From assembly GCA_041744215.1 (NCBI GenBank), contig JBGTLG010000041.1, positions 177,126-241,125 on the forward strand: 64,000 bases of DNA. The letters are read 5' to 3'. The stretch is from Fimbriimonadales bacterium (GTDB lineage: Bacteria > Armatimonadota > Fimbriimonadia > Fimbriimonadales > ATM1). Shown piece after piece: positions 4,419-56,103 of this stretch; positions within the stretch are counted from its first letter, which is position 1; every line of letters starts with the position of its first letter. The position numbers were made by a program, and so were the translations under genes. The notes beneath the pieces were generated by a model. The model was not told the origin of the DNA. It ran no database searches and worked only from the letters and a program-made list of their open reading frames with translations.

Positions 4419-4530
4419 GGCGACGATCGCGATTTACAACACCGACTCGCCCTGCCCGTTACCGATCCCCCCACATTCTCTATGACACTGAAAACTCAAT
4501 ATGCTGAGTTGCGCCGCGTCATTCCAGAAC

Positions 4531-5835: not shown

Positions 5836-5875
5836 CTTGCATTCATACGTATTTGCGGCGCAGAACGTAAGCAGG

Positions 5876-8488: not shown

Positions 8489-8525
8489 TCGATTTCACCT
8501 TCCTGTCGCGAAAGCTGGCGGAAGT

Positions 8526-9017: not shown

Positions 9018-9433
9018 CAGTCCTTCACCGGCGAATTGACAATGAGGATACGTGTTACCTGCTCGTCTGCCGAGATCTCGACCTTGATGTAGCCTCCTGC
9101 GCGCTCAAAGGTGAGTGATTTCGGTCTGGCGACCTCAATGTCCGGCTCGCCCAGCTTTTCCCGGTAGAACGCTTCGACTTCCTTCGCGATTGACTTCGTC
9201 GCGAACTCAGCGCGCTTGAGGGTTCCGGGGCCTTTAATCTCGGTTGTGAATGATATGACGTCAGAGCCTGGGAAGATCGGCGCGCCCAGATCCTGCTCCG
9301 TGACTGTAGGCGTGTACATCGTCGGCAGCTTTCTTTGGCGCGGCGTGGTGTCGCTGGCCGGAGCATCCGATTCGAGCGACGCTCCGCAACCCACCGAAAC
9401 AGCGATAGTCAGCGCCGAAAGCAGCATTCTCAT
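9017..9433 (-). CDS. Hypothetical lipoprotein
   Basis: Start at ATG 9433; signal with SVGC lipobox; stop abuts the HIT start. Confidence 0.7.
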   Translation of the reverse strand: MRMLLSALTIAVSVGCGASLESDAPASDTTPRQRKLPTMYTPTVTEQDLGAPIFPGSDVISFTTEIKGPGTLKRAEFATKSIAKEVEAFYREKLGEPDIEVARPKSLTFERAGGYIKVEISADEQVTRILIVNSPVKD

Positions 9434-9491
9434 GACGGGAAACTGTACCTTCCAATGTTGCTGTCGCCCAACTGTCGAGTAAGATTGTCGC

Positions 9492-10034
9492 GTGGCAGTG
9501 ATCAGGCGGTATCGAAGTCTCGCTCCTTTCACAGCCGAGGAGTTGGTGGACGCGGCAAACCGCTTGCTCCGCACCGGTCGCGGGAGGGAGTTGACAAAAC
9601 GGACCGTGCGCTACTACGTGTCCCAGGGATTGATCCCCCCACCGCTAGGTCCATCCAAGTTCGCGAGGTACACCTATCAGCACCTCCTCCTGCTTCTAAT
9701 CGTGCGCGCCTCGCTCGACCACGGCCACCGTTTAGAGCTCATCGCGAAGAACCTTGCTGACCTTGAAAGCGCTCCGGACGAAGCCCTCGAGGCCGAGGCG
9801 GCTAGATGGCTAAGGGGGGAGCACAGCGAACAACACAAGGCATTCGAATCCTCATTCGCAGCCGGCATGGTCATGGAGCCTGCGCTCGAATACGCTTCGC
9901 CGGGCCCTGCCTTTGGGAAGCTCGTCCTTCGGATCGAACTGACTCGGCATACGACGCTCGAGGTCGATGCGGGCGCCGACCTCCGATCGGAGCTTCGTGC
10001 GGCACTAGCAGAACTTAGAAGAAAAGTCGATTGA
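9492..10034 (+). CDS. MerR-like HTH transcriptional regulator
   Basis: RTVRYYVSQGLIPPP...ARYTYQHL winged-HTH signature. Confidence 0.85.
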   Translation: MAVIRRYRSLAPFTAEELVDAANRLLRTGRGRELTKRTVRYYVSQGLIPPPLGPSKFARYTYQHLLLLLIVRASLDHGHRLELIAKNLADLESAPDEALEAEAARWLRGEHSEQHKAFESSFAAGMVMEPALEYASPGPAFGKLVLRIELTRHTTLEVDAGADLRSELRAALAELRRKVD

Positions 10035-16202: not shown

Positions 16203-16277
16203 GCCGGCGTAGCTCAGTGGTAGAGCGGCTGTTTTGTAAACAGCGGGTCGCGGGTTCAAATCCTGTCGCCGGCTCCA
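16203..16277 (+). tRNA. tRNA-Thr(TGT)
   Basis: Cloverleaf with GCTGT-TTTGTAA-ACAGC anticodon arm, GTTCAAA T-loop and encoded CCA. Confidence 0.97.
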
Positions 16278-22931: not shown

Positions 22932-25469
22932 TTACTTCGGGCGGTACTTGCGGAGCCGCAGAGCGTTGGTGACCACCGAGACGCTCGATAGCGCCATTGC
23001 CGCGGAGGCGAGGATCGGGCTAAGAAGACCGAATGCCGCCAGTGGGATGCCCAGCGTGTTGTATATGAATGCAAAGAACAAGTTGCCCCGGATCGTGGCC
23101 ATGGTCGCGCGGCTCAATAGGAGCGCATCGGGAACGCCGTTCAGGTTGCTCCGCATCAGTGCGACATCTGCTGTCTCAAGCGCGATGTCCGCGCCGCTGC
23201 CCATGGCAATCCCCACGTCAGCTTGCGCGAGCGCGGGCGCATCGTTGATGCCATCTCCGACCATAGCGACGACTCTGCGTTCCGACTGGAGCCCCTTGAT
23301 CGCATTCGACTTGTCCTCCGGCAGCACTTCTGCCATCACGTTGGTGATTCCCACGCCTTGGCCAATCGCGTCAGCAGTGGGGCGATTGTCCCCAGTGATC
23401 ATCCAAATGTCGGTTACAAGTGCTTTCAGTCTCACGATTGCGCCCCGCGCCTCTTCTTTAGGCGTGTCCGCCAGCGCGATCACAGCAACGGCGCGGTCGT
23501 CCAAGCCGAAGTACACAGCTGTCTGCCCCTTGCTTGCAAGTTGGTTCGCACGCTCGACAAAACCGTTCATCGCGCAGCCAGAGCGTTCCAGAAATGCGCG
23601 AGTCCCAACAATAACCCGGTGACCGTCGATCACGCCTTCAAGGCCATTTCCTGCAACTGATCGGAAATGATCGACCTGCTTTAACTGAAGACCGCGCGAG
23701 CGCGCTTCAGCCACCACCGCTTCGGCAAGCGGGTGTCCGCTTAAGTTCTCCAGCGACGCTGCAAGCGTAAGCATTTCGTTTTCGTTTCCGTGCTGTGTCT
23801 CGACCGCAGTGACGACAGGCTTACCCAACGTAACTGTCCCCGTTTTGTCTAAAACCACCGTGTCCACTTTAGCAAGCCTCTCAAGCGCTTCAGCGTCCCG
23901 AACCAGTACGCCCAGCTGCGCTGATCGACCCGTACCGACCATCACAGCGACAGGCGTTGCCAAGCCGAGCGCGCATGGACACGCGATGATCAGAACTGCC
24001 ACCGACGGAACCATCGCCCCAACGATTGAGCCCGGGGTGACAAATCCAAACCAGATAGCGAACGTCGACGCTGCGATCATCAGTACAATCGGTACGAAGA
24101 TCGCGGTGATCTGGTCGGCGAGCTTTTGGATCGGAGCGCGCGATCCTTGCGCTTCTTGAACCAATCGTACGATCCGCGCAAGAGCAGAATCCTTGCCGAT
24201 CGCCGTCGCCCGATACCTAAACGCGCCCTCCCGATTGAGAGTGCCGCCATAAACTTTGTCTCCTACCGCTTTGTCAGCGGGGATGCTCTCGCCGGTCAGC
24301 ATGCTTTCATCGATTGCGCTTGCCCCATCGACCATTACGCCGTCGACAGGTAGGCGCTCTCCGGGCCGAACGACAATCAGATCGTCGGCGTCGACGTTCT
24401 CTACAGGAACCTGCTTTTCCTCATTGTCACGGACGACTCGCGCCGTCTTCGATTGCAACTCGAGCAGTTTTCTGATCGCGTCACCCGTCCGACCTTTCGC
24501 TCTCGCCTCCAGCCATCGACCCAAAAGAATCAGCGCTATGATCGCAGCAGCTACTTCATAGTAAACGTCGGCGTGATGTCTGAGCGGAAACGTCTTTGTG
24601 AGGCTATACGCGTACGCAGCGCCTGTGCCAAGCGCTATCAACACGTTCATGTCCGCGCTGCGATAACGTAGCGCTTTCGCAGCCTGAACAAAAAAATGAC
24701 CGCCGGCCCAAAACAACACAGGCGTCACGAGAATCAACTGAACCCATGGAGGCATCATCGGGACGCCAGGTACGTGCATCGATGTCGCGACAACTGGCGC
24801 CGTTAGAATAAGCGCAGTCCAGAACTTCGCTCCGAGGAGTTTCGCCTCTTTCGCGCGCTCCGCGTCGCGCTTGGCGTCGCTGTCCGCCTTTCGTTCGCTC
24901 GCCGTGTAGCCGGTTTTCCCAACGGCTCCTATCAGAGTGTCCACCTCGATGCCATCGGCAGTACGAACACGCGCGGTTTCGGTCGCAAGATTGACGCTGC
25001 AATCGATAACGCCGGGAATCCGGCGCAGCCCCTTTTCGACGCGACTGACGCAAGCCGCGCACGTCATTCCGCCGATGTCGAGTTCGGTCGTAGTCTGAGG
25101 TGCGCTGGATTCGACGACGAGCGTTCCCCGATACATCCCCATCGAGCAGGTGAACGCAAACTCCCCACTCTTATCGGGCGTGAACTCGATGAGAGTCTTC
25201 TCGAACGCAGGCAATGATCGGGTAATCCCAAAGTCGGGAAACGAAACCTGATCGGAACAGGTCTCGGTCTCCTGGCGGTCGAAGATCAGCCTGACCGGAC
25301 GCCCAGCGACAACGGAGACTTTGCTCGGCGAATACGCTCCGCTAACGGTGATTAAGACCTCTTGCACTCCGCCCTTGGAGTCAGCCGTTACCACCTTGCG
25401 AGGTCCAAAGAAAAACCAAGCGATGAACCCGATTGCCGCAAGCGCTGAGGCTATGACGACGAACGTCAT
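22932..25469 (-). CDS. copA: Cu(I)-translocating P1B-1 ATPase with N-terminal cupredoxin and HMA domains
   Basis: FTCSMGMY, GMTCAAC, TGES, CPC, DKTGT, GDGIND, YN, MALSS. Confidence 0.93.
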   Translation of the reverse strand: MTFVVIASALAAIGFIAWFFFGPRKVVTADSKGGVQEVLITVSGAYSPSKVSVVAGRPVRLIFDRQETETCSDQVSFPDFGITRSLPAFEKTLIEFTPDKSGEFAFTCSMGMYRGTLVVESSAPQTTTELDIGGMTCAACVSRVEKGLRRIPGVIDCSVNLATETARVRTADGIEVDTLIGAVGKTGYTASERKADSDAKRDAERAKEAKLLGAKFWTALILTAPVVATSMHVPGVPMMPPWVQLILVTPVLFWAGGHFFVQAAKALRYRSADMNVLIALGTGAAYAYSLTKTFPLRHHADVYYEVAAAIIALILLGRWLEARAKGRTGDAIRKLLELQSKTARVVRDNEEKQVPVENVDADDLIVVRPGERLPVDGVMVDGASAIDESMLTGESIPADKAVGDKVYGGTLNREGAFRYRATAIGKDSALARIVRLVQEAQGSRAPIQKLADQITAIFVPIVLMIAASTFAIWFGFVTPGSIVGAMVPSVAVLIIACPCALGLATPVAVMVGTGRSAQLGVLVRDAEALERLAKVDTVVLDKTGTVTLGKPVVTAVETQHGNENEMLTLAASLENLSGHPLAEAVVAEARSRGLQLKQVDHFRSVAGNGLEGVIDGHRVIVGTRAFLERSGCAMNGFVERANQLASKGQTAVYFGLDDRAVAVIALADTPKEEARGAIVRLKALVTDIWMITGDNRPTADAIGQGVGITNVMAEVLPEDKSNAIKGLQSERRVVAMVGDGINDAPALAQADVGIAMGSGADIALETADVALMRSNLNGVPDALLLSRATMATIRGNLFFAFIYNTLGIPLAAFGLLSPILASAAMALSSVSVVTNALRLRKYRPK

Positions 25470-25476
25470 TTCAGCA

Positions 25477-25680
25477 TCACGCGATCTCGAAGCCGGCTTC
25501 GTCGATCGCGGCCTTGATCTGTTCTGGATCGGTCGTCTCTTCGATATCGACTTGGATCGTCTTCGCGTCAACGTCTACGCGAACGTCGTGAACGCCAGGC
25601 AGCGGGGAAACGGCGCGGACTATGCTGGCAGCGCAGCCGTCGCAATGGATGTCGTTGGAGGAATAGGTGAGTGTGTTCAT
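25477..25680 (-). CDS. copZ: CopZ-like HMA copper chaperone
   Basis: IHCDGC motif, 67 aa, AGF near the C-terminus. Confidence 0.85.
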   Translation of the reverse strand: MNTLTYSSNDIHCDGCAASIVRAVSPLPGVHDVRVDVDAKTIQVDIEETTDPEQIKAAIDEAGFEIA

Positions 25681-25702
25681 AGTTGATGTCCGCTGTGAAT
25701 CG

Positions 25703-26068
25703 CTAAAGTTGACCATAGCTCCTGGCGCATTGACCATCGATTCGCATACCGAGCCTTTTTTGCAGCCGGTCCCGATCGTTAGCAGTCCATTCGTTGTCGT
25801 GGTCGAAGAACTCGAAAAGCCGCGCGATGTTATCCTGCGTATTCGGGGCGATCCGATAGTAAACCCACGTCCCAACCCGGCGCGTGTCTACGATCCCAAG
25901 ATCCCGGAGCTTGGCGAGGTGATTCGAGAGTGTCGATTGGGGCAGGTCGAGGGCATCGGCAAGCTCGCAGACGCAAAGGTCCGACTTGACCAAGCACCGG
26001 GTTATCCGTAGCCGAGTCTCGTCAGAGAGAGCCTTGCAAACCTTCTGTAGCGTCACAGAGAACTCCAT
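25703..26068 (-). CDS. ArsR/SmtB family metalloregulator
   Basis: KALSDETRLRI, LCVCEL, QSTLSNHL. An alternative GTG start at 26056 follows GGAG. Confidence 0.9.
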   Translation of the reverse strand: MEFSVTLQKVCKALSDETRLRITRCLVKSDLCVCELADALDLPQSTLSNHLAKLRDLGIVDTRRVGTWVYYRIAPNTQDNIARLFEFFDHDNEWTANDRDRLQKRLGMRIDGQCARSYGQL

Positions 26069-26091
26069 TATATCCTGATATGAGGATATAA
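26068..26091. promoter_or_regulatory. Palindromic operator, probably for ArsR
   Basis: TTATATCCT-N6-AGGATATAA perfect 9-bp inverted repeat between the divergent arsR and YHS genes. Confidence 0.75.
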
Positions 26092-26146
26092 GCCGCGGCG
26101 ACTGGCCCGGTAGCGTAAAATGAGGTGAATTGGAACGAAGGAGATT

Positions 26147-26716
26147 TTGATGATTACGACGATTCTTGCCATGGCCGCTTTGTCTGTCCAGGGAACTGCG
26201 CCTCAGACGATCTGCCCAGTCGGGCAGCACGATTCCACAGGCATGGGACTCGATTACTTCTATCGAGGCGTGCAGTACACGCTTTGTTGTGAAGGATGCA
26301 TTCCAAAGTTCAATGCTGATCCGATCAAGTACACGAAGGAGTGGAAGGACGAAGGCATCATCGGTGTCGCGCAATTCGACGTGATCTCAAAAAAACGAAT
26401 CGACTACAAGAAGGCGACAGCGCACAGCGATTACAACGGCGTCCGCTATTACTTTGTGACCGAAGCGAGCAAGAAAACTTTCGATGCCGATCCCAAGAAG
26501 CTGTCAGCGGTTCCTGAGAAAGAAGTGATCGACAGGTGCCCTGTGATGGGCGAAGCGATCAATATCGCGAAACTTCCAGATTACGTCGATCATGAAGGCG
26601 TGCGCTATTACTTCTGCTGCGCGGGATGCGGAACGGCATTTTCGAAAGATCCCGCGAAATATGCGTCGTCGGTCACGCCAAAGACCGCTGTTGTGCACAA
26701 GCTGCCGGAGAAGTAG
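26147..26716 (+). CDS. Secreted triple YHS/TRASH-domain protein
   Basis: Signal peptide; CPV..YTLCCEGC..F..DP; YNGVRYYF; CPVMG..YYFCCAGC..F..DP. Confidence 0.85.
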   Translation: MMITTILAMAALSVQGTAPQTICPVGQHDSTGMGLDYFYRGVQYTLCCEGCIPKFNADPIKYTKEWKDEGIIGVAQFDVISKKRIDYKKATAHSDYNGVRYYFVTEASKKTFDADPKKLSAVPEKEVIDRCPVMGEAINIAKLPDYVDHEGVRYYFCCAGCGTAFSKDPAKYASSVTPKTAVVHKLPEK

Positions 26717-26801: not shown

Positions 26802-27251
26802 TCAGGAAAGTGCAGCCAGCACTTCTTCTGAGTTCTGATCGGGGCTTGCCTTCTCCCAAGCCGCTCTCACGATCCCGTGCTCGTCAAACAGAAACGTCGA
26901 CCGCTGATTGCCCCAATACTTCTTCCCGTACAAGCTCTTTTCCACCCACACACCGAACATCTCCGCGACCTTGTGCCCTTCGTCCGATAGCAAAGTGAAC
27001 GGCAGCGAATACTTCTCTGCGAACTTCTTGTGCGACTTCACGCTGTCTGGACTAACTCCGAGCACCCGAACTCCTTCGAATCGCGAGAACGAATCGCGAA
27101 ATGCGCAAGCCTGTTTCGTGCACCCTGGCGTATCGTCCTTCGGATAAAAGTAGACAACGAACCGCTTGCCAATCAGATCACTCGAAGAAACGACGTTCCC
27201 GTCCTGATCCGCAAGCGAGAATGCTGGAACCCGGTCGCCCACTTGAAGCAT
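26802..27251 (-). CDS. bcp: Thiol peroxidase Bcp
   Basis: YFYPKDDTPGCTKQAC. Confidence 0.93.
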   Translation of the reverse strand: MLQVGDRVPAFSLADQDGNVVSSSDLIGKRFVVYFYPKDDTPGCTKQACAFRDSFSRFEGVRVLGVSPDSVKSHKKFAEKYSLPFTLLSDEGHKVAEMFGVWVEKSLYGKKYWGNQRSTFLFDEHGIVRAAWEKASPDQNSEEVLAALS

Positions 27252-27255
27252 CGGC

Positions 27256-28134
27256 CTATTCGCTGCCACCATTCGACTTGGCTGGAGGCATGAGTTTGTT
27301 TTCATACTTGAAATCATCGCGCAGCTTCTGTTGCAATCGCACTTGCGCCCGCTGAAGAAAGATGTTCTTCGCCGCCTCAAGCTCGTTTGGCGGCGGTGGC
27401 CCAGCATTCTCGACGAGAACGACGACGACTCCCGACGCAGTCTCAAACGGACCAATGACATCGCCCGATTTCGCTTCGCCGGCGGCTTTTGCCATGTCTG
27501 GCGTCATGTCTTGTGGCGCAATCCAACCCAGATTGCCGTTGAGCGGTTTCGTGGACTGATCTTCGCTATATGCATCGACGAGAGACGCCCAGGTCTCGCC
27601 TCCCCTCGCCCAAGAAATGATGTTTCGCGCGCGAAGTTTCGCTTCATCTCTCGCTTGTTCGCTGAAGTCTTTCGGCTTCAAAACTATGTGCGAAATCTTG
27701 CGCAGCGTGGCCGGATCGAAATCCTTCATCGCAATCTTATCGAAGAGCAATCCCTGGCGAACCTGCACCCATACTTGCGAGTACGGCATCCCCATTGCGC
27801 GAAGATGCTGCTCGAATGTGCGCCCCTCAGGCACACTGGCGCGGTACTGCGCTACCTGCTTTTCGACCTCGGCTTCTACCTCCTCATAGGTGACCGAAAC
27901 GCCCGCTGTTTTCGCGGCTTCCTCGACCATCACCATGCCGATCACTTGCTGAGTGAGCGGATAGCCGACCCAATCCCAGAGTACTTTCTCAACCTCCGAC
28001 GCGTGGATTGGCCTCCCATTCACCGTCGCGATCACGTCATTCCCGGAGGGAGGTTTTTGCATCTTTGATTCCGGGACCAGCCCCGATAGGCTGACGGCTT
28101 GGAAGACTGCGGCGGCCCAGATAACAGCGTTCAT
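27256..28134 (-). CDS. PrsA/SurA-like parvulin peptidylprolyl isomerase
   Basis: Signal peptide, VIATVNG, ISHIV, YSED...GNLGW, GPFET. Confidence 0.85.
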   Translation of the reverse strand: MNAVIWAAAVFQAVSLSGLVPESKMQKPPSGNDVIATVNGRPIHASEVEKVLWDWVGYPLTQQVIGMVMVEEAAKTAGVSVTYEEVEAEVEKQVAQYRASVPEGRTFEQHLRAMGMPYSQVWVQVRQGLLFDKIAMKDFDPATLRKISHIVLKPKDFSEQARDEAKLRARNIISWARGGETWASLVDAYSEDQSTKPLNGNLGWIAPQDMTPDMAKAAGEAKSGDVIGPFETASGVVVVLVENAGPPPPNELEAAKNIFLQRAQVRLQQKLRDDFKYENKLMPPAKSNGGSE

Positions 28135-33017: not shown

Positions 33018-33224
33018 CTGAAATGCGCTCCTGCCGGCAGGAGCGATGAATTCTACTACGCCGGTCCGCCGCGAGCGGTTTGCCCAGTCGGCACACGCTG
33101 TGCCGAATCACCCAATCGCTCGAATCCTGGCCGGGCAATTGGCCCCAAAACGCCAGCCTTCGGTCGCGATTCAAGTGCGTTTGTTGTATCCTCTTAAGCT
33201 CGGCATTTCCGGAGAGGGTTGATC

Positions 33225-34586
33225 ATGACAAAAGCAGTACCGATAACGATTTCGCTGGCTGGAGCAACGTTCGCACTCGCATTGTGGGCGGCTACAGCGC
33301 AGGGCGGTTCCCAGCACACCCCAGCCGCGCCCCGCGCAATCACCTACGCAGGCGACGTCGCAGAGATCCTCTTCGAGCACTGCGTCGAGTGCCACCGCCC
33401 TGGGGAAGTCGCGCCCTTCTCACTATTGACCTACGAAGACGCGATGAAGCGCGCACCCCTGATCGCATACTCGGTCGAATCAAAACTCATGCCGCCGTGG
33501 AAAGCAAAGCAGGGATACAACGAATTCCACGACGCGAACGTTTTGTCGCAGGACAAAGTCGCCGCACTGCGAGCTTGGGCAGATGCCGGCGCGCCGATGG
33601 GAGATAAATCTAAACTGCCGAAGCCGCCCGAATTCTCCTCGGCATGGGCGCTCGGGGAACCCGACGCGATCCTCTCTTCGCCAAAGCCCTACAAGATTAG
33701 CGCTGAAGGCCGCGACGATTACCGCAACTTCGTCATCAAGACCGACTACAAAGAAACGAAGTGGATTCGTGCGATGGCGGTACGGCCAGACAACAAACGC
33801 GTGGTCCACCACGTCATTGCGTTTCTGGACGATTCCGGGCGCGCAATAGAATTCGAGAAAAGGCAAAACGACGGGCAGCCTGGATACTCGACATTTGGTG
33901 GCGTAGGAGTGGTGCCCAGCGGCGCGCTCGGCGGATGGGCGCCAGGGCTTCGGCCAAACGAAACACCCGATTACGCTGCTTTCGAGCTAAAACCGGGCAC
34001 GACGATCGTCTTGCAGATCCACTACAACAAGACAGGAAAAGAAGAAGTCGATCAAACGCAAATCGGACTCTATTTCGCAAAAGAACCGCCGAAGCAAAAA
34101 ATGAATCTCGCATGGCTCGCAAACATTGGTTTGCGCATCCCTGCCGGAAAGGAAGATCATGTTGCTAAGTGGCAAATGAGAATCCCCGCCGACGTAACGC
34201 TTTATGGCGCAATGCCGCACATGCACCTTCTCGGCACGTGGATGAAATCTCATGCGATAACTCCCGATGGCAAGGAAGTTCCGCTGGTGTGGGTCGAAGA
34301 TTGGGACTTCAATTGGCAGCTGCAATACCAGTTCGCCAAACCGATCAAACTTCCTCGTGGAAGCGTGATTCATGTCGAAGCAGGCTACGACAATTCTTCG
34401 GATAATCCGAGACAGCCCAGCGACCCCCCCCGCGAAGTGCGATGGGGCGAACAAACGACCGACGAAATGATGCTGCTCATCATTCCATACACCGTCGATG
34501 GAGTCGGTATCGCAGATAATCGCGATTACAATTCTCCGTTTCGCCCGTTCGGCGGCTCGCCCCTCGGTGGCGCAGATCGAAACTAA
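33225..34586 (+). CDS. Heme-c-fused PHM/DBM-like copper type II monooxygenase
   Basis: Signal peptide, CVECH, MPPW; HH, QIHY, PHMH and DEM copper ligands. Confidence 0.8.
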   Translation: MTKAVPITISLAGATFALALWAATAQGGSQHTPAAPRAITYAGDVAEILFEHCVECHRPGEVAPFSLLTYEDAMKRAPLIAYSVESKLMPPWKAKQGYNEFHDANVLSQDKVAALRAWADAGAPMGDKSKLPKPPEFSSAWALGEPDAILSSPKPYKISAEGRDDYRNFVIKTDYKETKWIRAMAVRPDNKRVVHHVIAFLDDSGRAIEFEKRQNDGQPGYSTFGGVGVVPSGALGGWAPGLRPNETPDYAAFELKPGTTIVLQIHYNKTGKEEVDQTQIGLYFAKEPPKQKMNLAWLANIGLRIPAGKEDHVAKWQMRIPADVTLYGAMPHMHLLGTWMKSHAITPDGKEVPLVWVEDWDFNWQLQYQFAKPIKLPRGSVIHVEAGYDNSSDNPRQPSDPPREVRWGEQTTDEMMLLIIPYTVDGVGIADNRDYNSPFRPFGGSPLGGADRN

Positions 34587-34625
34587 ATCTTCCGATAAGC
34601 TGCGAATGGCGAAAACCCGAAACAG

Positions 34626-35729
34626 TTAGAACATCCAACCGACTTCCAACAGGAATTGCGGATACCTTCGCTCCTGAAACCGACCCTCGAGAATCAGCTT
34701 GACCGCAGAATCTCCGAAGGGAAGCACAAAACTCGTATACGGCGAAATCATCGGCCGAAAACCTGGCGCATCGCGATAGTCGAGCCTCGCTCCGAATGCA
34801 GTAGAGAAAGAAGGAATCCAATCGATGCCCGCGCTAAGCCGCCACTCCGACGCTCCCTGTGTCGTCGCGTGCGAAAAGCCGCCGTCAAAGAAAAGATCTC
34901 CACAATTGTACTGCGCTGCAGTGCCAATCAAAAATCGTTCGTTGTTGCCCACGAATGCATGAACTCCAACTGATTGCAGCCCACGGGCCTCGTATAACTC
35001 TAAAAATGCGCCCTTTGGATTCGGCTCGAATTCGAAACTTGCAGTTGAGCGAGCTTCACTAGTAAGCGGAATGCTGAATTCACCAGGAAACGGAATGGTC
35101 AAGGCAGCATTCCACGTGCCCGCAAATTGGTGCATCGCTCTTATCGAAGGGGATCGACCAGAAAGCGAAAAGCCTCGCAACGATGTCTTGCGCGAGTTGC
35201 TTCCCGAAGTGCCGGGAAGAGAGGCCGAAAAGCTTGTAGGCTCGCCAAGATTCAGTCGGAGTGAAACGTCCAACTGCGACAGCGCGCGATACTGCCCGAA
35301 TTGTAGTTGAGTGGATTTGTTGACGTCGTAGGTGAAAAACAAATCTTCAAACCGACCGCTGCGGTCACGCTTGCTGCCAGAGGAAAGCACCTCCTTGCTC
35401 AGCGCGCGCCACTCAACAAAGTAAGACCACCTATTCGACTGCCCTGCCGAAATCAACTCGATCCGATTGGCTACTCCCCGAACCGTCTTAGGATCGTTCG
35501 GGACCGTTTGAGCCATTGCACTCAACCAAAACGAAATGGGTAGGACGTCCCGGATCTTAGTCCGCGGCGGAGAGTAGTTTGAATCCGCAAAAAGCTGCCC
35601 CTTCAGATTCAGTTTTGGCGGCTGCGTGTGACAGTCCGCACAGGCCATCTTATACTCGCGGGCGAATTGCGGAATCGCGCCTGCAATTACCGCCAGAAAC
35701 GTCAAAACAACAGCAATCGATCCTCTCAT
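34626..35729 (-). CDS. Cyc2-like monoheme cytochrome c-porin fusion
   Basis: Signal peptide, AIPQFAREY-x3-CADCH-TQPPKL, beta strands, terminal Phe (VGWMF). Confidence 0.75.
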   Translation of the reverse strand: MRGSIAVVLTFLAVIAGAIPQFAREYKMACADCHTQPPKLNLKGQLFADSNYSPPRTKIRDVLPISFWLSAMAQTVPNDPKTVRGVANRIELISAGQSNRWSYFVEWRALSKEVLSSGSKRDRSGRFEDLFFTYDVNKSTQLQFGQYRALSQLDVSLRLNLGEPTSFSASLPGTSGSNSRKTSLRGFSLSGRSPSIRAMHQFAGTWNAALTIPFPGEFSIPLTSEARSTASFEFEPNPKGAFLELYEARGLQSVGVHAFVGNNERFLIGTAAQYNCGDLFFDGGFSHATTQGASEWRLSAGIDWIPSFSTAFGARLDYRDAPGFRPMISPYTSFVLPFGDSAVKLILEGRFQERRYPQFLLEVGWMF

Positions 35730-35749
35730 GATGCCACCTTCAGGCCACA

Positions 35750-35779
35750 AGTGTATCGCATGCTACATTTCTTTGTCAA
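35750..35779 (-). promoter_or_regulatory. Sigma70 promoter of the cyc2-like gene
   Basis: Minus strand TTGACA-18 nt-TACACT about 20 nt upstream of ATG 35729. Confidence 0.65.
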
Positions 35780-35894
35780 GTCTCATAAAGTGAGCCTATG
35801 CAAATGTAAACGCTTGAGGATTTGAGGCCTTCCGCTGACGCCTTTTATCCCCCCTCCTCGTCCCTTCCAACGGAAGCCGCATACGGAGGTGCGC

Positions 35895-36221
35895 ATGGCA
35901 GACATAGACGGCGAACTGTGGAAACACAACATGGCGAAGATCACGATCGTGGACGTAAGTGAGGACTACCGCCATATGCTCGACCCGATGCCTTCGCACA
36001 TGTATCCCGTGGTCAAAGAGGTCTGGCTTCCCAAATACAAATTGGCCGAGCGCCTGCTCGAAGAAGGACTGATCACAGGCTACCAATACGACTGGCATGA
36101 GGTTCCAATGGGCCGGCACGATGTTGAGCACTGGTACGTCGGAGTCGTCGCCGATGCCCTCGCGGCAGTTTCAGACCTTGGTGCTGGCTTCCGTCCGGCG
36201 TTGGCAAATGTCATCCCTTGA
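35895..36221 (+). CDS. Hypothetical cytoplasmic protein
   Basis: GGAGGT RBS; host-like codon usage; 108 aa. Confidence 0.75.
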   Translation: MADIDGELWKHNMAKITIVDVSEDYRHMLDPMPSHMYPVVKEVWLPKYKLAERLLEEGLITGYQYDWHEVPMGRHDVEHWYVGVVADALAAVSDLGAGFRPALANVIP

Positions 36222-36246
36222 CGGAGGGTACAAAGTATGATAGACT
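36218..36246 (+). promoter_or_regulatory. Sigma70 promoter of the VKOR-DsbA/peptide operon
   Basis: TTGACG-17 nt-TAGACT with extended TG, followed by AGGAGAG and ATG 36266. Confidence 0.6.
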
Positions 36247-36265
36247 CTCAGTACCAGCAGGAGAG

Positions 36266-37447
36266 ATGGGCTTGATAAATCGCCTTGAAAGGTACACCAC
36301 TACTCCCTTCATTGATGCCCACATAGGTCGCTGGTGGCGGTATCGGCTCGCGGCATACATTTTGGGCCTCGCCGGGATTTTCGTAGCGGGGACACTTTCG
36401 CTGTCTCATGTCTGGCACGCTCCGCTTCCGTGCGGTGTTGGTTCTGGCTGCCAAACCATATTGAACCACCCCTCGTCCTCGGTTCTGGGGGTTCCAGTGG
36501 CAGTTTACGGTCTATTCGCTTATGGTCTGATATCTACGCTGCTCGGAGTTCAACTCTTTAGAGGCAGGCTGGGGACCCCGGATACCCTCGCCTACCTTCT
36601 TGCAGGATTCGGTGCCGTAGTAAGCCTCACGATGACCGCGTACTCGGTTGGTGTAGTCCGCCAAGTGTGCACCTGGTGCTTGGCTTCCGCAGTCATAATG
36701 TGTCTGTTGCTCTTTTGTATGGGACGGTACCATTACTTGAGTGCAATATCGAGTGATTTTACGGGACAAAATCGGGGGGGGGCTGAAACCTCGCGGGAGT
36801 GTGTTTACTGTTACCGCTCTTCCAGTCATAGTGCTGGGTGCCCTCGTATGGCGAGCCTTCACTCTCCCCCATGGGGGTGATCGTGGAGTTGATCAGTCCG
36901 TTTTATCAAACATTCCTCTCTCCGATCTGATAACGACAGACTCGCGTCGCTTTGGGCCCCTGGTGCTCCATACACCCTGATCGTCTTTAGCGACCTCGGA
37001 TGCCCCGCCTGTCATTACTACTGGCCGCATGTGGTGCGAGTAACAGAGGAAACCGATAGGCTCGCCGTCGTGCTGCGTCATTTGCCATTGCGTCTGAATT
37101 CTCCGGCATTTTCTGCGGCTGTGGCCGCAGAGTCTGATTGCTCAGATGCAGAATTCTGGCGGTTCCTGTGGACTGCGGCTCGGAATGGGCTGCATAGCTC
37201 GGAGGACTTCGGCACCGCGTTAAGAAGTATATGTGGCGACGGAAGCGAACGACTGTTGAGCGTTGCGGGTCAGCAGCGTGTCATGCGCGACCGCGCGCTC
37301 GCGGCAGATCTCAAAGTGCCTGGAACACCCTGGATGATCCTGATTGGCCCCGGTGACTCTTTTAGGCAAGAAGTTTCCATGGAACAACTCGTTGAGCTGG
37401 TGGGTGAGAAATCCGTCGCTTCTCCGACGAGGGCAGCAGAATACTAG
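36266..37447 (+). pseudogene. VKOR-DsbA fusion interrupted by two compensating frameshifts
   Basis: VKOR: CGVGSGC..IL..PSS.VLGVP, CTWC. Shift at G9 36774-36782, then a TM/linker segment in another frame. Shift at CCCC 36957-36960, then DsbA: VFSDLGCPAC, RHLPL, GTP. Confidence 0.8.
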
Positions 37448-37480
37448 ATTTTGTGACAGACAACACCGGAGGTAAAACCA

Positions 37481-37729
37481 ATGATGAAACCAAATGAAAA
37501 AATCGGCCGCAACCGATCATCAAGAGCGAAAATCCACGCTCTTGTGTGTGTTGGGGCGCTCTTGGCGGCGGTCGCCGCCCTCGCTGCTCCTCTTGCGCTG
37601 GACGAGGATCCTCTCCCTCCTGTTCCGTGCAGTAACGGCCCAGGGGCGACTTGCGTTGGGACCTGTGACAACGGTAACGTTTGTCACAGGCCTTCGAGCC
37701 CTGGTAACTGCACTTGCAACTGGAGCTAA
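37481..37729 (+). CDS. Secreted six-cysteine peptide precursor
   Basis: GGAGGT RBS 37468; basic n-region plus hydrophobic signal; C-x7-C-x3-C-x5-C-x8-C-x-C. Confidence 0.75.
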   Translation: MMKPNEKIGRNRSSRAKIHALVCVGALLAAVAALAAPLALDEDPLPPVPCSNGPGATCVGTCDNGNVCHRPSSPGNCTCNWS

Positions 37730-37731
37730 CA

Positions 37732-39801
37732 ATGAGTGGAAGATGGGCGCGATTCGCGGTCGCATTTGTGCTCGTGACTTGGCCGGCGCTCGACGGCCTT
37801 GCGACGCCATGCGAGTCCGTCCGCGCCCATCTACTAAGTTTATCGGATGATCCAAAGCGGCCTTTGCAGGCAGCTAATCCTCTCGCGAACGAAATTGTCA
37901 TCCTCGACCCGGGTGATGCGTCGACGCAGGAGATACTCGACAGGCTGGCGTTCGTGTTGCGTGCAACTTGGAAAGACAAAGAACTCCGTCGGGATTCAGA
38001 GGCAGTTCAGGCGTTGCAATCTTTGGATCGAGATGCACGGATAAGGACAATAACTGCATTCCTGAAAGAGGTGACTGTCCTTCCAGACACCAACAACGTG
38101 AATGCCTACGCGAGCGCGTTTCGCGCGTCGCTTGACTCAGCTGAAGAGCTTATCCGAAATGGGTACACCTCGGTCACACAGCCGAACTCGGCGCTACGGG
38201 TCCCAGCGTGGGACCATGTTCAAACGCCAGCACGAGTAACACTTGCCAGAGTTCTTACTGCGCTCGGCTCGGAGACGCTGGCAGACCTGCCTCGCTATGA
38301 AACCGTCGTTTTTTCAGATCGCCCCACGGCCGTCCAACGTGCGATGCCCGATGCGGCGCAACTGAAGAGTTGGATTGCGCAACTCGCTCCGCTTGGCGCG
38401 GAAGCAGTTCGCGACCGTCCCCCGGGCGAAGCCATAACCGATGGCATCGTTCTGTCAACTGAGAGGCTTGTCCAGTCCGTAAACCAAGGCGGCATTGCGC
38501 GAATCCACCTTTTTCTTACTCGGAGAGCGGATGAAATCACCTGTCTTCTGATGTTGTATGGAAGCCGAGGAGAGGAGTTGGGCATTGCCGGTCGTGCGGT
38601 GCTGCGAATCCCCATCCAGCCTCGTGGCATGCGAGTCGCGCCAGACATTCCTGACGTAGACGGCACTCTCCCACTCTCAGGCGCGAACCAGGAGTTCCAT
38701 CTAATCTCCGGCCTTGGCCTCCCAACGACTCCAATAGGAATCGAGCAGCTCCGACCGAGTTTCGAGTTTCAAGAGCGGATGTTTCGTCCGACCAAAAACG
38801 ATCCATTGGGCTTCGGCGTAAATGATGTGCTTTTGGCCATCGGAAGGCGGGCTGGGCTGAGGGTAATGGCGTGTGTCCAGGATTCCGCATTGGACGCATT
38901 TCGCGACTGCGTCAAGAGACAGGTTGTCGATTTCCTCGACTTTCTAGCCGCATTGTCGGACGAGCACGAAATCATCGTGCAAGACAATTGGTTGTTAGTG
39001 AGGCCCAAAAACTCGCTCGAATCGGAACGTAGCCGCATTCCGCGTGCCGCGTTAGAGAAGCTGATGATGCAGGCAAACGACCAGAAGCACCTCTCCCTCC
39101 GCGCGTGGGCGTTGCACCATTACGAGAGCAAAGTTGCGGCGCATCGTAATCCGATCGCGCGCACATACCGCTCGTTTATAAACCATCTTTGGCAACGTTC
39201 GTATCCTGTCGTTGATTCATTCGAAGGCGACGACTATCCGCTACCGGTGCTGATGTTTTTAGGGTCGCTCTCGGAAGCGGAGTACGAAGCACTGATGCAC
39301 GGACGAGCCAGTTTCGATCTAGGGGGCTTGCGGATCGATCAGCGTACGTGGATGCGTGAGATTCTAGGTTACCGGCACCTACTCTTGAGGAGGGATCCAA
39401 GCTCGGACGGCCCCGACTGGTTATTGACCGGTAGCGAAGCCGTGCCAGAAGTCTCCCTCAGAGGAGCGGTGTTGCGGTCAGACCTGACATCAGCGAAGGC
39501 AATCGTAAACCAAACCATGAGTTTCGATGCTATGAAGGGCCTACTGAATTCGCCGAACACGATTGAAGAAGTTTGGCGGTCGTTCGGTTCGTGGCCAGAA
39601 TTGGACGTGACCCTAGCCATGAACGGTAGATATGTTGTCGGCCATCAACAGTTTGTCAGGATCACGATAACTGCTCGAACAGGAATAGTACGGCATTTAG
39701 GCATACGCGGCGAGTTCTTGCCTACAACTGAGGCACTCGTGTTTCGTGACTTGCCTGAAGATGTGCGGCGGGCATTCGGGGGAAGCGACCGATCAAACTG
39801 A
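37732..39801 (+). CDS. Large exported hypothetical protein (~689 aa)
   Basis: ATG 2 nt after the peptide stop; signal-like N-terminus; long ORF. Confidence 0.8.
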
Positions 39802-40329
39802 TTCGACCGTTATCTTGTCGTTCGAATAAACACAGATATCCGCTGAGATCAGAAGCGCCTCTCGCGCAATATCCTCGACAGACAAAGTCGTGTGAGCCAT
39901 CAGAGCACGAGCAGCCGCCAAAGCGAAAGGCCCACCCGATCCAATTCCCGCAACCCCTTCGTCAGGCTCGATCACGTTGCCATCACCAGAAACCAGCAAC
40001 AGCGCATCCGACGACGCAACGATCATCATCGCGTTCAGTTGCCGGAGAATCTTGTCCGTCCGCCAATCCTTGGCAAACTCCACAGCCGCGCGCCGCACGT
40101 TCCCAGCGTACTGCTCGAGCTTCGCCTCGAATCGCTCCGTCAAAGCCTGAGCGTCTGCGACGCTCCCAGCGAAACCGGCGATGACATTTCCACCTGGCCC
40201 TATCCGCCGCACCTTCTTCGCCGTATGCTTGATCGCGACACCCTGATCGCCAAGCGTCACCTGCCCGTCAGCGCCAACCGCAACCTTCCCATCTCGCATC
40301 ACGCCGATTACTGTCGTCGAACGAATCAT
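39793..40329 (-). CDS. hslV: ATP-dependent protease peptidase subunit HslV
   Basis: TTVIGV...[30 protein letters not shown]. Confidence 0.95.
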
Positions 40330-40393
40330 CTCACGGAGTTTACCGATACGCTCGCCAGACGGGAGTGGAGTCGGTTAGTGCCAGAATCCCCGC

Positions 40394-41668
40394 GTGCTAA
40401 GGCACACCGATCTAAGACCCCAGTGGCTCGTCGCGGTCGTTGCCGCGATCGTTATTCTCGCGGCGATGGCCTTCAGCCTAACAGGCGCATTCCCAGGAGG
40501 CGTCTGGTGGCTCGGATTCGGCGCCCTCGCAGCATCCCTCGCGATGATCGGTGCCCTCACCCGGATGCGCTCCGCCGCCCAGGACTGGATCAGGGAACTG
40601 CGATCCGCCAAATCGGAATTGCGCGCTCTCACAGCGGAAATCGACGCTTCCGAACGCAGGATGCAAAACCTCGCCGACGGACTCGACGCGCCCGTTTTTG
40701 TGTGCAGCCGCGAAGGCGCGATTCGCTGGGCGAACGAAGCCGCAAAGAGGTTCTTCAACTTCGAAGACCTCATCGGGCGCACCCTTCTCGAGGTCTCCCT
40801 CAGCGTCGATCTTCAACAGCTCGGCATCCGCGCAGCCCAAGAGGACGCGCTCGTCAGGGGCGAGATCCAGCTGAGCCACCCGCAAGAGCGCATCGTCGAA
40901 ACAAAGGCCTACCCCGCCGCGGATGATCCAGAACTCCTGTTTGTCGTCGCTAACGATATCACCGAGCTTCGCCGCCTCGAACGCGTCCGAACAGACTTCG
41001 TCGCCAACGCAAGCCACGAACTGCGAACCCCCATGGCCTCCATCAGGTCCATGGCGGAGACAATTCTCCAGGACGACGAACTGCCGGAAGAAACACGCCA
41101 GCGCTTTCTTAGCCGGATCATCTTCGAGGTCGACCGCCTAACCGCGCTCTCAGAAGACCTGCTCGTCCTCTCAGCAGCAGAGTCGCAAAAGTCGGCAGTC
41201 GAATCGCTCGATTTCGCAGACGTCGTCCGCTATGTAGCGCAAGACTTCATAGTCCGCGCCAAAGACAAGGGAATACAGTTCGAAGTCGAAGCCCCGGAAA
41301 CGCTCCTCCTTTATGGCGACGAAGGTCAACTGGTCCAAGTGGTACAGAATCTCATGAGCAACGCCGTCCGATATACACAAGAAGGAAGAATCGATGTATC
41401 ACTTCGCACCGACGGCAATGAATCGATCCTCGAGGTCAAGGATACGGGCCTCGGAATCTCGAGCGAGCACGCGCCCCGAATTTTCGAACGGTTCTATCGC
41501 GCGGATCGTGCGCGTTCCCGCGAGACCGGAGGTACCGGCCTCGGGCTTTCCATCGTAAAGCACATCGTCAGCGCCCATGGTGGAACGATCGAGGTCGAAA
41601 GCGAACTCAACGTCGGCTCGATGTTTCGCGTTAGGTTGCCGCTGCGCCGGGGCGATCAGGCGGCATAA
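40394..41668 (+). CDS. PAS sensor histidine kinase (PhoR-like)
   Basis: Two TMs, PAS, ASHELRTP, NAVRY, DTGLGI, GTGLGL. Confidence 0.92.
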   Translation: MLRHTDLRPQWLVAVVAAIVILAAMAFSLTGAFPGGVWWLGFGALAASLAMIGALTRMRSAAQDWIRELRSAKSELRALTAEIDASERRMQNLADGLDAPVFVCSREGAIRWANEAAKRFFNFEDLIGRTLLEVSLSVDLQQLGIRAAQEDALVRGEIQLSHPQERIVETKAYPAADDPELLFVVANDITELRRLERVRTDFVANASHELRTPMASIRSMAETILQDDELPEETRQRFLSRIIFEVDRLTALSEDLLVLSAAESQKSAVESLDFADVVRYVAQDFIVRAKDKGIQFEVEAPETLLLYGDEGQLVQVVQNLMSNAVRYTQEGRIDVSLRTDGNESILEVKDTGLGISSEHAPRIFERFYRADRARSRETGGTGLGLSIVKHIVSAHGGTIEVESELNVGSMFRVRLPLRRGDQAA

Positions 41669-41670
41669 AA

Positions 41671-42225
41671 ATGCTGGGTGGCTGGGACGTCGCAATCTTC
41701 CGCTGGATCAACGACGGCTGGGCGTCGCCCGCGCTCGATCCCATCTTCTGGTTCTTCAGCCTCGGAATAAAGGGTTGGCCGTTGAGGATTTTTCTCATCG
41801 GGCTCGCCGTCTTCTTGCTCGTTCGGGGTCATGCCCACCGCATCGCCGCGCTCGCAGCAATCGCCGCAGCGGGTCTCGCAAACGAAATGTGCGACCTCGC
41901 TAAATGGGCCCACTTCGGATGGAGACCGTCGGCAGACCTACCAGACGTTCGCATTCTTGGCGCAGCGTTGACAAGCTCCGGGACGATCAGCGCGCACTCC
42001 GCCAACATGGCTGCAGTCGCCGTCGTCTTCTGGTGGAGGCTCGGTCCAAAATGGGGGATTCCTTGGGCCGTGGTTGCATTTCTCACCGGCCTCTCGCGAA
42101 TCTATGTGGGTGCCCACTATCCGTCGCAGGTCCTCTTCGGATGGACCGCCGGAATCACCGCTGCCTCGATCATCTGCGCTGCCATCCTCCTCATCGAAAA
42201 GCGAACGCAAAAGAAAGCGGGATAG
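41671..42225 (+). CDS. PAP2 family phosphatase
   Basis: K-x6-RP, SAHS, SRIYVGAHYP. Confidence 0.88.
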   Translation: MLGGWDVAIFRWINDGWASPALDPIFWFFSLGIKGWPLRIFLIGLAVFLLVRGHAHRIAALAAIAAAGLANEMCDLAKWAHFGWRPSADLPDVRILGAALTSSGTISAHSANMAAVAVVFWWRLGPKWGIPWAVVAFLTGLSRIYVGAHYPSQVLFGWTAGITAASIICAAILLIEKRTQKKAG

Positions 42226-49498: not shown

Positions 49499-49610
49499 GC
49501 CATTTGACGTAATGTTGGCAGGCATTATGCTTAGTGTCTGCAGTGTTTGATGCGTAGCAGCATCTTTGGTTTGATTGCCTGGATTGATAATTCCTATAGG
49601 AGGAAATGAA

Positions 49611-50492
49611 ATGATGCGACGAAGAGCATTCACGCTCATCGAATTGCTGGTGGTCATTGCGATCATCGCGATTCTTGCGGCGATCCTGTTCCCGGTGTTC
49701 GCAACCGCCAAAGAAAAGGCGAAGCAGACTTCTTGTCTGAGCAACAACCGGCAGTGGGGTGCCTCATTCCAACTCTATCTTGGTGACCATGACGACACCT
49801 GGCCTCTGGCTATGTCGACCACTGGCACCACCTACCGGTGGAACTTCAACCACGCAGTCCCAGCTGACTGGCGCTCCGACCAGGGTCCCCAGTACGCCGA
49901 GGAAATGCGTGTTCACTGGTCAAACGCAATGCAGAGCTACATCCAGAACTACGGCATTTACGAATGCCCGTCTGGCCCTGAGTTCCGCCACGGCGTGACC
50001 TACACCGGTCTCACTGGCCCTCGACCTCGCCGCGTTGGCTACTCGTACAACGGACTGTTGCACTCGTACAACGCGTCTGGCGTCGTCTCCCCGTCGGAAC
50101 TACTTGTTCTTTGGGAAGGCCGAGGCAAGGCCAACTCGCTCGGCTTCGCCCTATCGAACCCGACGCTGGCGTGCACCCAGGCTACGACCGACCCGATCCC
50201 CTGTATTTACCGGCCAGGCGCAGCTCCGGCTGGTGCGATGTTCGTGCTCAACGGCACGCTGTACATCCACAACAGGGGTGTCAATGGCACGTTCGCTGAC
50301 AGCCATGCCAAGTGGCGCCGGCTCGGCGCTCAGACGGTTGGACCGCCTCCGTCGGTCTCCTGTGGCCCGCCGTTCACCGACTGGCGCGTCGACCCGTACA
50401 CGGGCTACGCGACGAACGGTATCCCGGCATGCTACTGGTTTGATGGCTTCCACGCGTGGCTATTCAGACCGGCCTACGACTTCAGCCTCTAA
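49611..50492 (+). CDS. Prepilin-type N-methylation / DUF1559 / H-X9-DG protein, paralog 1
   Basis: [47 protein letters not shown]. Confidence 0.93.
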
Positions 50493-50510
50493 GCTGCTGT
50501 CGTCTGAAGA

Positions 50511-50556
50511 AGATGTGCGCGGCCTGCTTCGGCAAGCCGCGCACGTCCGTTTTTTG
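50511..50556 (+). terminator. Rho-independent terminator
   Basis: GATGTGCGCGGC...GCCGCGCACGTC stem, TTCG loop, T6. Confidence 0.8.
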
Positions 50557-50784
50557 GCTCGGCTGTGGCGCTGCGAACCGAAGATTCAGGGAACCAAATC
50601 CTCAAAAAGACCGTCACTTAGAAGCACACTCGGTCGTGACCCTGCCTTCCTGGCACGAATCGTGTGTAATAATGCCTGTCTTGCGATTTGGCCGTAGGCC
50701 ACATAGTGTTCCTACCTCACCATCCGCTAATTCATTGCCTTGTTGATTGCCTGCACTCATACAAGTCCTATAGGAGGAAACGAA

Positions 50785-51669
50785 ATGATGCGACGAAGAG
50801 CATTCACGCTCATCGAATTGTTGGTGGTCATTGCGATCATCGCGATTCTTGCGGCTATCCTGTTCCCCGTGTTCGCAACCGCCAAAGAAAAGGCGAAGCA
50901 GACGTCTTGTCTGAGCAACACGCGGCAGTGGGGTACCGCCTTCCAACTCTATCTTGGTGACCATGACGACACATATCCTTTGGCTATGTCGACGACTGGT
51001 ACCACCTACCGGTGGAACTTCAATCACGCCGTCCCGGCTGATTGGCGCACCGACCAAGGCGTCCAGTACGCTGAGGAAATGCGTATTCACTGGTCAAACG
51101 CCATGCAGAGCTACATCCAGAACTACGGCATTTACGAATGCCCGTCTGGCCCTGAGTTCCGCCACACGGTGACCTACACCGGCCTCACTGGCCCTCGACC
51201 CCGCCGCGTTGGCTACTCGTACAACGGACTGTTGCACTCGTACAACGCTTCGGGCGTCGTCTCCCCGTCCGAGCTCGTCGCTCTCTGGGAAGGCCGAGGC
51301 AAGGCCAACTCGCTCGGTTTCGCTCTGTCGAACCCGACACTGATGTGCACCCAGGCGACGACCGACCCGATTCCTTGTATCTACCGTCCAGGAACCACTC
51401 CTACCGGCGTGATGTTCGCGCTCAACGGTACGCTCTACATCCACAATCGCGGCGTTAACGCAACGTTCGCTGACAGCCATGCTAAGTGGCGCCGGCTCGG
51501 CGCTCAGACGGTTGGACCTCCTCCGTCGGCTTCCTGTGGCCCGCCTTTCACCGACTGGCGCGTTGACCCGTACACGGGCTACGCAACTAACGGTGTGCCG
51601 GCATGCTACTGGGGCGACGCCGCTGGCCACGCCTGGCTGTTCCGTCCGGACTACGACTTCAGCATCTAA
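50785..51669 (+). CDS. Prepilin-type N-methylation / DUF1559 / H-X9-DG protein, paralog 2
   Basis: Near-identical tandem copy of 49611-50492. Confidence 0.93.
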
Positions 51670-52045: not shown

Positions 52046-52386
52046 TGGGAGTCGGCCGGACGGCGGCCCCGATGAAAGTCGGGGAGGAAAGTCCGGGCTC
52101 CACAGGGCAGAGCGCCAGGTAACGCCTGGGCGGAGCAATCCGACGGAAAGTGCAACAGAAACATACCGCCTCGATTCGTCGGGGTAAGGGTGAAATGGTG
52201 GGGTAAGAGCCCACCGGCGTCTCGGAGACGGGGCGGCCGGGCAAACCCCGCTCGGAGCAAGGCCTAATAGGAAGGGAATGATGCTGCCCGCGGACCCTTC
52301 GGGTTGGCCGCTTGAGTTTCGGTGCGAACCGAAACCTAGATAGATCGCCGTACAAAGACAGAACCCGGCTTACAGGCCGACTCCCA
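52046..52386 (+). ncRNA. rnpB: RNase P RNA (type A)
   Basis: GAGGAAAGTCCGGGCTC, AGTGCAACAGAA, ACAGAACCCGGCTTA; terminal helix GGGAGTCGGCC/GGCCGACTCCC. Confidence 0.97.
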
Positions 52387-52504
52387 GCACCCGCTATTGA
52401 ACGAATCGTGTACAGGCTTCGTCTACGTTAACTGGCCTGCCTCTTGCTTAGGCAGAACTTGTCCGCATCCAACCACGCTAAATTCCAACCAGGAGTCAAT
52501 ATCA

Positions 52505-56028: not shown

Positions 56029-56103
56029 TGGTGGGCGGTACTGGACTTGAACCAGTGACCCCTTCGGTGTGAACGAAGTGCTCTACCACTGAGCTAACCG
56101 CCC
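56029..56103 (-). tRNA. tRNA-Val(CAC)
   Basis: GGGCGGTTAGCTCAG...CTTCG-TTCACAC-CGAAG...GTTCAAG...ACCA. Confidence 0.97.

Follow-up and report, generated by a model that had tools for sequence, protein, structure and literature searches.

We analyzed a 64,000-nucleotide (nt) stretch of DNA from a Fimbriimonadales bacterium (contig JBGTLG010000041.1), referred to below as the window, and describe here three co-oriented reading units on its plus strand, between positions 36218 and 39801. They encode, in order, a predicted disulfide oxidase, an 82-amino-acid (aa) precursor peptide with six cysteines, and a 689-aa protein. The open reading frame (ORF) list and our reading of the sequence place 33 nt between the oxidase and peptide genes and 2 nt between the peptide gene and the large gene. 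The close packing and common orientation described in the original prediction were thus borne out, as were its start for the large ORF 2 nt after the peptide and the gene identities that it proposed, the last by Pfam scans, the ORF list, and sequence reading together. A ribosome-binding site for the large gene also lies inside the end of the peptide ORF, and the peptide and large genes are tightly coupled (Table 1).

By its Pfam matches, the first gene is a fusion of a VKOR domain and a DsbA-like domain. ORF 36218-36880 contains the VKOR domain (PF07884, E 3.9e-17; score 63.1 bits, cut-off 27.5), and in ORF 36944-37447 there is a thioredoxin domain of the DsbA-like type (PF01323, E 5.1e-8; score 33.4 bits, cut-off 25.6) that also matches PF13462 (E 2.1e-4). 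Position 36218 marks a -35-like hexamer, not the gene start, which is likely the ATG at 36266. A three-frame translation located all four catalytic cysteines of the VKOR domain in frame 1, as a loop pair in PCGVGSGC and a CTWC active site, and the thioredoxin domain has a CPAC motif at 37001-37012 and a GTP cis-proline loop. The protein search with the oxidase gave a sole hit, a 313-aa protein with DsbA and Thioredoxin_4 domains that is approximately 70% identical to it (P0154). When the thioredoxin domain of P0154 was compared with PDB sequences, all six hits at E ≤ 0.01 (best, 5.3e-5) were DsbA-like or metal-resistance oxidoreductases; for the VKOR part, phmmer found none in PDB sequences at that threshold.

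The oxidase gene carries two single-base homopolymer indels in this assembly, and frame 1 read straight through meets two stops. As a result of these indels, one in a G9 run and one in GGGCCCC, the 58 codons for the fifth transmembrane helix and the linker are out of frame. A broken reading frame had been noted in the original prediction and is indeed present, with two frame changes where that prediction had one. P0154 is collinear with all three segments of the window gene and runs uninterrupted through both indel sites, and the segments stay 69 to 75% identical to it, so the broken gene is no more diverged than its neighbors. Either homopolymer errors made in assembly or an inactivation that happened very recently would account for the two indels.

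The second gene encodes the peptide, with cysteines at residues 50, 58, 62, 68, 77, and 79 (spacing 7/3/5/8/1) and a hydrophobic stretch with a maximum 11-residue hydropathy of 2.9. At word-based sensitivity, a search of 5.8 billion protein clusters returned only one homolog, P0004, which is also 82 aa long. Over the core, from C50 to W81, 31 of 32 residues are identical between the two and all six cysteines are kept, compared with 25 of 43 residues in the leader (residues 1 to 43). The neighboring genes give identities of 66% for the large protein and 69 to 75% for the oxidase segments, and at least 31 identities in 32 would arise with a binomial probability of 3e-5 if the background is 66% and of 1.6e-4 if it is 70%. 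Because core identity exceeds that of the neighbors in this way, the peptide appears to be translated and is strongly constrained; the comparison is good evidence for a real product. The PLPPxPC motif is conserved as well, and the acidic DEDP spacer is not, since the homolog has LLQGP at this place. Thus, of the precursor features originally listed, the ribosome-binding site, the hydrophobic N terminus, and the six-cysteine core stood, and the acidic spacer fell away.

No search placed the peptide in a known family. NCBIfam and PHROGs gave no match, the best score in an Atlas search (0.80) was at noise level, and tblastn against plasmids gave no match. Two Pfam matches, to Auxin_canalis (23.6 bits against a cut-off of 24.8) and DUF2613 (16.5 against 22.1), were set aside as sub-cut-off matches that cover the hydrophobic leader. 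A lipobox at C23 was rejected by inspection, with valine at position -1 and only five hydrophobic residues before it. The codon-usage score of the leader is +0.164. We also observed a terminator-like hairpin of 8 bp, whose T-rich tail is weak, at 37521-37544 (plus strand), inside the signal-peptide coding part of the gene; eight terminator-like sites were found against 4.6 ± 1.9 in shuffles, and this hairpin is maybe a chance occurrence. On the sequence data, the peptide is a credible orphan disulfide miniprotein.

The cysteine order had been likened to that of alpha-beta peptides stabilized by cysteines (CS-alpha-beta peptides), and the observed spacing agrees with this. Bacterial cis-defensins have been mined with the pattern CX(2,18)CX(3)CX(2,12)CX(4,17)CXC (PMC11561630), and both the window peptide and P0004 fit it. 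The pattern was found in 331 of 100000 shuffles of the 33-aa core. Among 1584 six-frame segments taken from the window and from a related locus described below, it occurs once, in the peptide itself. The cysteine pattern is therefore above chance, as judged from these sequence counts, and is a lead only for membership in the CS-alpha-beta group. No defensin or toxin family in Pfam was matched at E ≤ 0.01, and phmmer against PDB sequences found no defensin at E ≤ 10, the best match (E 0.39) being to an unrelated protein. The putative mature peptide carries a net charge of -3 in the window and -1 in P0004, values that make it anionic to neutral. A C3-C4 loop of 5 residues is unusual for a helix-bearing CS-alpha-beta core, and so would be a helix with the valine, glycine, and threonine that the CxxxC segment contains.

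The third gene encodes a member of a large family. A word-based protein search gave one relative (P0002, 66% identity). Among 1.84 billion representatives, HMMER gave 745 matches at E ≤ 1e-3, falling to 154 at E ≤ 1e-10 and to 8 at E ≤ 1e-30; the best 150 of the 745 relatives are mostly 650 to 790 aa long. Among the 30 nearest clusters in the Atlas, 26 are unnamed and have Armatimonadota as their commonest phylum, and the family is apparently centered on that phylum. Pfam at E ≤ 0.001 matched 0 of 44 family members. When 64 members were scanned at E ≤ 1, 45 Pfam families were matched, and each of the 25 listed was hit by a single member at most. There was also no NCBIfam or PHROGs match in the 11 members scanned and no tblastn match of the large protein to phages and plasmids. 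An N-terminal hydrophobic segment is found in 138 of 143 full-length members, the median cysteine count in the 151 members fetched is 3, and none of these 151 has the cysteine pattern of the peptide. Thus, family members are neither rich in cysteine nor, as a rule, fused to a peptide of this kind, and they are probably exported.

A model of the large protein, predicted with a 115-row alignment, had a predicted local distance difference test (pLDDT) score of 90.3 and a predicted template-modeling score (pTM) of 0.90. Foldseek with the whole chain, a comparison in which single domains could be missed, gave 0 matches at E ≤ 0.001 in PDB or BFVD, with TM-scores of ≤0.11. Irrespective of the peptide, the protein marks a large uncharacterized family that no model in Pfam, NCBIfam, or PHROGs covers and whose confidently predicted structure has no neighbor in PDB or BFVD. 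An STN domain, suggested by an Atlas lead (score 0.87), was rejected, being absent from the 25 of 45 Pfam families listed at E ≤ 1 for 64 members. By eye, residues ~27 to 86 and 363 to 425 have a beta-alpha-beta-alpha-beta-beta order that recalls STN and secretin N-domains, a resemblance that is unsupported by the sequence searches. When residues 25 to 689 of the large protein were modeled together with the mature peptide (residues 36 to 82), the complex scored 0.02 against a mark of 0.32, and the peptide fold had a pLDDT of <50; we count this result neither for nor against an interaction.

The closest relative bears on whether the arrangement is conserved. P0004 and P0154 come from the same source, each with one contig and each with a longest contig of 2330 nt, most simply explained if the two share a single contig, so the adjacency of oxidase and peptide genes is probably kept there. 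A contig of 2330 nt would fit a truncated oxidase gene, the peptide gene, and ~368 codons of the large gene, a fragment that would not have been recovered because it is below the 378-aa length floor of the large-protein search. A search for related loci with a 4-row alignment of the large protein gave one locus, L001, from an Armatimonadota metagenome-assembled genome, with a homolog 44% identical to the large protein and neither the peptide nor VKOR within 8 kb of it. An alignment between the leader-core junction of the peptide and a 160-aa protein of L001 (23 aa, E 0.076 in the 18-kb search) was not significant and was discarded. Upstream of the homolog in L001, at 4341-7864, we observed genes for an extracytoplasmic function sigma factor, the 160-aa protein, which is secreted and has 14 cysteines, a small membrane protein, a pilin-like protein with an N_methyl motif, and a lone terminase large subunit (PF03237 and PF17289), in that order. 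The long ORF that holds the homolog (7443-9962) overlaps the terminase gene.

Upstream of the oxidase gene, the TTGACG-17-TAGACT promoter claimed earlier is present in the sequence, at the frequency expected of shuffled sequence. A scan of 5 kb found 3 promoter-like sites, against 2.4 ± 1.7 in shuffles, and the site is at chance level. Its -35-like hexamer overlaps the stop codon of a 110-aa ORF that has the best codon-usage score in the region and ends 44 nt before the oxidase start, so transcription possibly starts further upstream. Scans with Pfam and NCBIfam left this upstream ORF unmatched, and it may be the gene with which the transcription unit actually begins.

Table 1. Positions of the genes, segments, and signals in the window
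Feature	Position	Strand	Details
tRNA gene	16203-16274	+	
Upstream ORF, 110 aa	35889-36221	+	Codon-usage score +0.366 against a training mean of 0.228; best in region
Promoter-like site TTGACG-17-TAGACT	36218-36246	+	9 of 12 positions match
VKOR segment, frame 1	36266-36775	+	PF07884; identity to P0154 at 62 of 89 residues
G9 run, first frameshift site	36774-36782	+	One G more than in the intact relative; no homopolymer in the window is longer
Fifth transmembrane helix and linker, frame 2 only	36783-36956	+	Identity to P0154 at 38 of 55 residues, E 1e-25
GGGCCCC, second frameshift site	36954-36960	+	One base missing, by three-frame translation against P0154
DsbA-like thioredoxin segment, frame 1	36959-37447	+	PF01323, PF13462; identity to P0154 at 117 of 156 residues
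Ribosome-binding site GGAGG of peptide gene	37468-37472	+	8 nt before ATG; read from sequence
82-aa precursor	37481-37729	+	Basic N-region, hydrophobic residues 18 to 40, ALA at 33 to 35, PLPPVP linker, six-cysteine core
Six-cysteine core, C50 to C79	37628-37717	+	Cysteine spacing 7/3/5/8/1
Ribosome-binding site GGAG of large gene	37722-37725	+	Inside end of peptide ORF
689-aa probably exported protein, large unnamed family	37732-39801	+	ORF starts 2 nt after peptide stop
Bacterial class A RNase P RNA	52048-52388	+	310.7 bits
tRNA gene	56032-56103	-	

The window as a whole is ordinary chromosome. At 33219-34586 (plus strand) and 34626-35750 (minus strand) are two exported-looking proteins with single CxxCH heme-binding motifs, CVECH and CADCH. 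The first of these has a weak match, below the cut-off, to a copper monooxygenase C-terminal domain (E 0.0032) and contains CHRPGE, which resembles the CHRPSSPG of the peptide, probably by coincidence. On the minus strand, 22932-26374 encodes a CopA-type P-type ATPase, which has a cupredoxin-like domain at its N terminus and an HMA domain, side by side with an ArsR-family regulator. At 26802-28134, on the same strand, a gene for an AhpC/TSA-Redoxin protein with a 70-residue N-terminal extension overlaps the end of a gene for a SurA-like peptidyl-prolyl isomerase; these last two resemble another gene pair for envelope folding or redox functions. At 49575-51669 (plus strand), two pilin-like proteins of ~305 aa with prepilin N-terminal methylation motifs flank a 96-aa ORF.

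The most economical reading of the locus, to which we give a probability of roughly 0.5, is a small operon of envelope proteins in which a general disulfide oxidase stands beside two exported clients. We regard the oxidase as most likely the general oxidase of the organism rather than a dedicated one, because in Actinomyces oris (PMC9974433) an oxidoreductase with a broad range of substrates has VKOR as its DsbB counterpart. The membrane VKOR domain, joined through the fifth transmembrane helix to a periplasmic DsbA-like domain, would pass electrons to quinone and make disulfides in exported proteins. The 82-aa precursor would be targeted to Sec and either cleaved near ALA (33 to 35) or retained as a signal anchor, exposing a proline-rich linker and a 33-residue domain whose six invariant cysteines would form three disulfides. 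The third gene is translationally coupled to the second, and its product would be an exported protein of ~665 aa from a lineage-restricted family. Because of this coupling the peptide and the large protein would be made together, and the two may act jointly, with the peptide in the role of ligand, inhibitor, or cofactor. It is plausible that the three genes are linked in function.

Several observations weigh against this reading. The oxidase is not translatable as one protein in this assembly, and no other Pfam-matched gene in the window looked split. Export and cleavage of the peptide are judged by eye and hydropathy only, and its hydrophobic stretch, at 23 residues, could be a membrane anchor. 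The codon-usage score of the cysteine core is -0.342 in its own frame, compared with +0.105 in the +1 frame, a negative value that we attribute to the unusual cysteine, glycine, asparagine, and proline composition of the core. tblastn searches of L001 (17950 bases) found no homolog of the VKOR-DsbA fusion (best E 4.5) or of the peptide (best E 0.076). Finally, our view covers 64 kb, and any other oxidase in the genome would lie outside it.

The state of the oxidase gene leads to a second explanation, in which it is a genuine pseudogene and the peptide and large protein are oxidized, if at all, by a system encoded elsewhere. The three genes would then have ceased to function as a unit. A true pseudogene is possible because both indels fall in one gene and no other Pfam family was seen to be split across adjacent frames among the 65 window ORF translations scanned (3 of which are pieces of the oxidase), a comparison that is not a rigorous test. 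The other long homopolymers in ORFs that were inspected by eye, the C8 runs at 34424 and 60007, also leave those ORFs intact. Against this, each indel falls in a homopolymer and the two offset one another in length, which is what consensus errors would give, and all three oxidase segments show a level of identity to the relative similar to that of the neighbors (66% and 75%), with no further lesions. We therefore hold a genuine pseudogene to be a tentative alternative, doubtful on present evidence and well behind the operon of oxidase and clients.

The original prediction had gone further and proposed a private oxidative-folding cassette, with the VKOR-DsbA protein dedicated to a defensin-like toxin, signal, or inhibitor and the large protein as its carrier, receptor, or immunity factor. 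The idea is legitimate because peptide operons with their own oxidoreductases exist, the precedent being sunA-sunT-bdbA-sunS-bdbB (PMC6391423). The cysteine spacing of the peptide, which fits the cis-defensin pattern (PMC11561630) at the low shuffle frequency given above, its strongly conserved core, and the probably conserved adjacency of oxidase and peptide genes also speak for it. The peptide itself is a poor fit, having no defensin similarity in Pfam or PDB sequences at the thresholds used, a C3-C4 loop and a Gly/Val-rich CxxxC segment that are atypical of CS-alpha-beta peptides, and a net negative charge here and in its homolog. The surroundings are no more favorable: there is no transporter, protease, or small immunity gene among the ORFs from 33219 to 42225, the family of the large protein is vast and the sole other locus seen is not linked to a peptide, and the supposed clients are intact next to a broken oxidase. 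Weakened on these points, a dedicated cassette is in our view unlikely. In the most far-reaching form of the idea, Armatimonadota would have in this peptide their first miniprotein of the cis-defensin type, which a VKOR-DsbA protein of its own would fold and which would serve as a tight ligand or inhibitor of an exported protein with a new fold, whose family diversified across the phylum; we think this somewhat less probable still. If the system were dedicated, the peptide would not be a membrane-active killer, because it is non-cationic.

Least probable is that the peptide is a periplasmic metal-binding or metal-buffering miniprotein whose cysteines and conserved histidine bind copper or zinc in place of disulfide formation, since the invariance of six cysteines and one histidine in both sequences, the naming of 3 of the 6 PDB hits (E ≤ 0.01) of the P0154 thioredoxin domain as copper or metal resistance or sensitivity proteins, and the CopA-like ATPase and ArsR-type regulator at 22932-26374 have to be set against a peptide that is encoded directly behind a disulfide-forming enzyme and exported to an oxidizing compartment, a CxxxC plus CxC arrangement that is the classic pattern of a disulfide scaffold, and copper genes that are 11 kb away on the other strand.

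If the grouping is a general oxidase with two clients, the locus is an ordinary operon with an orphan peptide. If the peptide instead has a CS-alpha-beta fold, bacterial defensin-like peptides would reach a fourth phylum, in a non-cationic form, and the locus would tie such a peptide to an enzyme that forms disulfides and to a defined partner gene.

Among known systems, the first gene is closest to VKOR-thioredoxin fusions, a fused form that occurs in cyanobacteria, and to the actinobacterial VKOR/MdbA pair, which substitute for DsbB and DsbA. Features in common are a VKOR domain with the loop cysteine pair and a CxxC motif, an extra transmembrane helix, and a C-terminal DsbA-like domain that has a CxxC motif and a cis-proline loop. 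It differs in being spread over three frame segments in this assembly and in lying directly upstream of a gene for a six-cysteine peptide.

The peptide compares best with the bacterial cis-defensins, for which five classes are described (PMC11561630). Like them, it is a precursor of between 30 and 130 aa with a putative N-terminal export signal (here judged by eye) and the six-cysteine pattern; in contrast to them, it lacks sequence or profile similarity, has a short C3-C4 loop, and is non-cationic. The 74 peptides in that study come from three phyla, and its main text has 0 occurrences of the word Armatimonad. The literature search found no work linking Armatimonadota with cysteine-rich peptides of this kind, its matches being unrelated as judged by title and abstract.

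As an arrangement of genes, the locus most resembles the sublancin operon of the Bacillus subtilis prophage SP-beta, in which BdbB is needed for the two disulfides of the product (PMC6391423). Both place a secreted peptide of the disulfide type in one operon with a thiol-disulfide oxidoreductase, an organization that is predicted from the genes in our case. There is no transporter-protease and no glycosyltransferase here, however, and the predicted signal of the peptide is of the Sec type, not a leader that a transporter removes. The oxidase also differs, being a VKOR fusion encoded upstream of the peptide.

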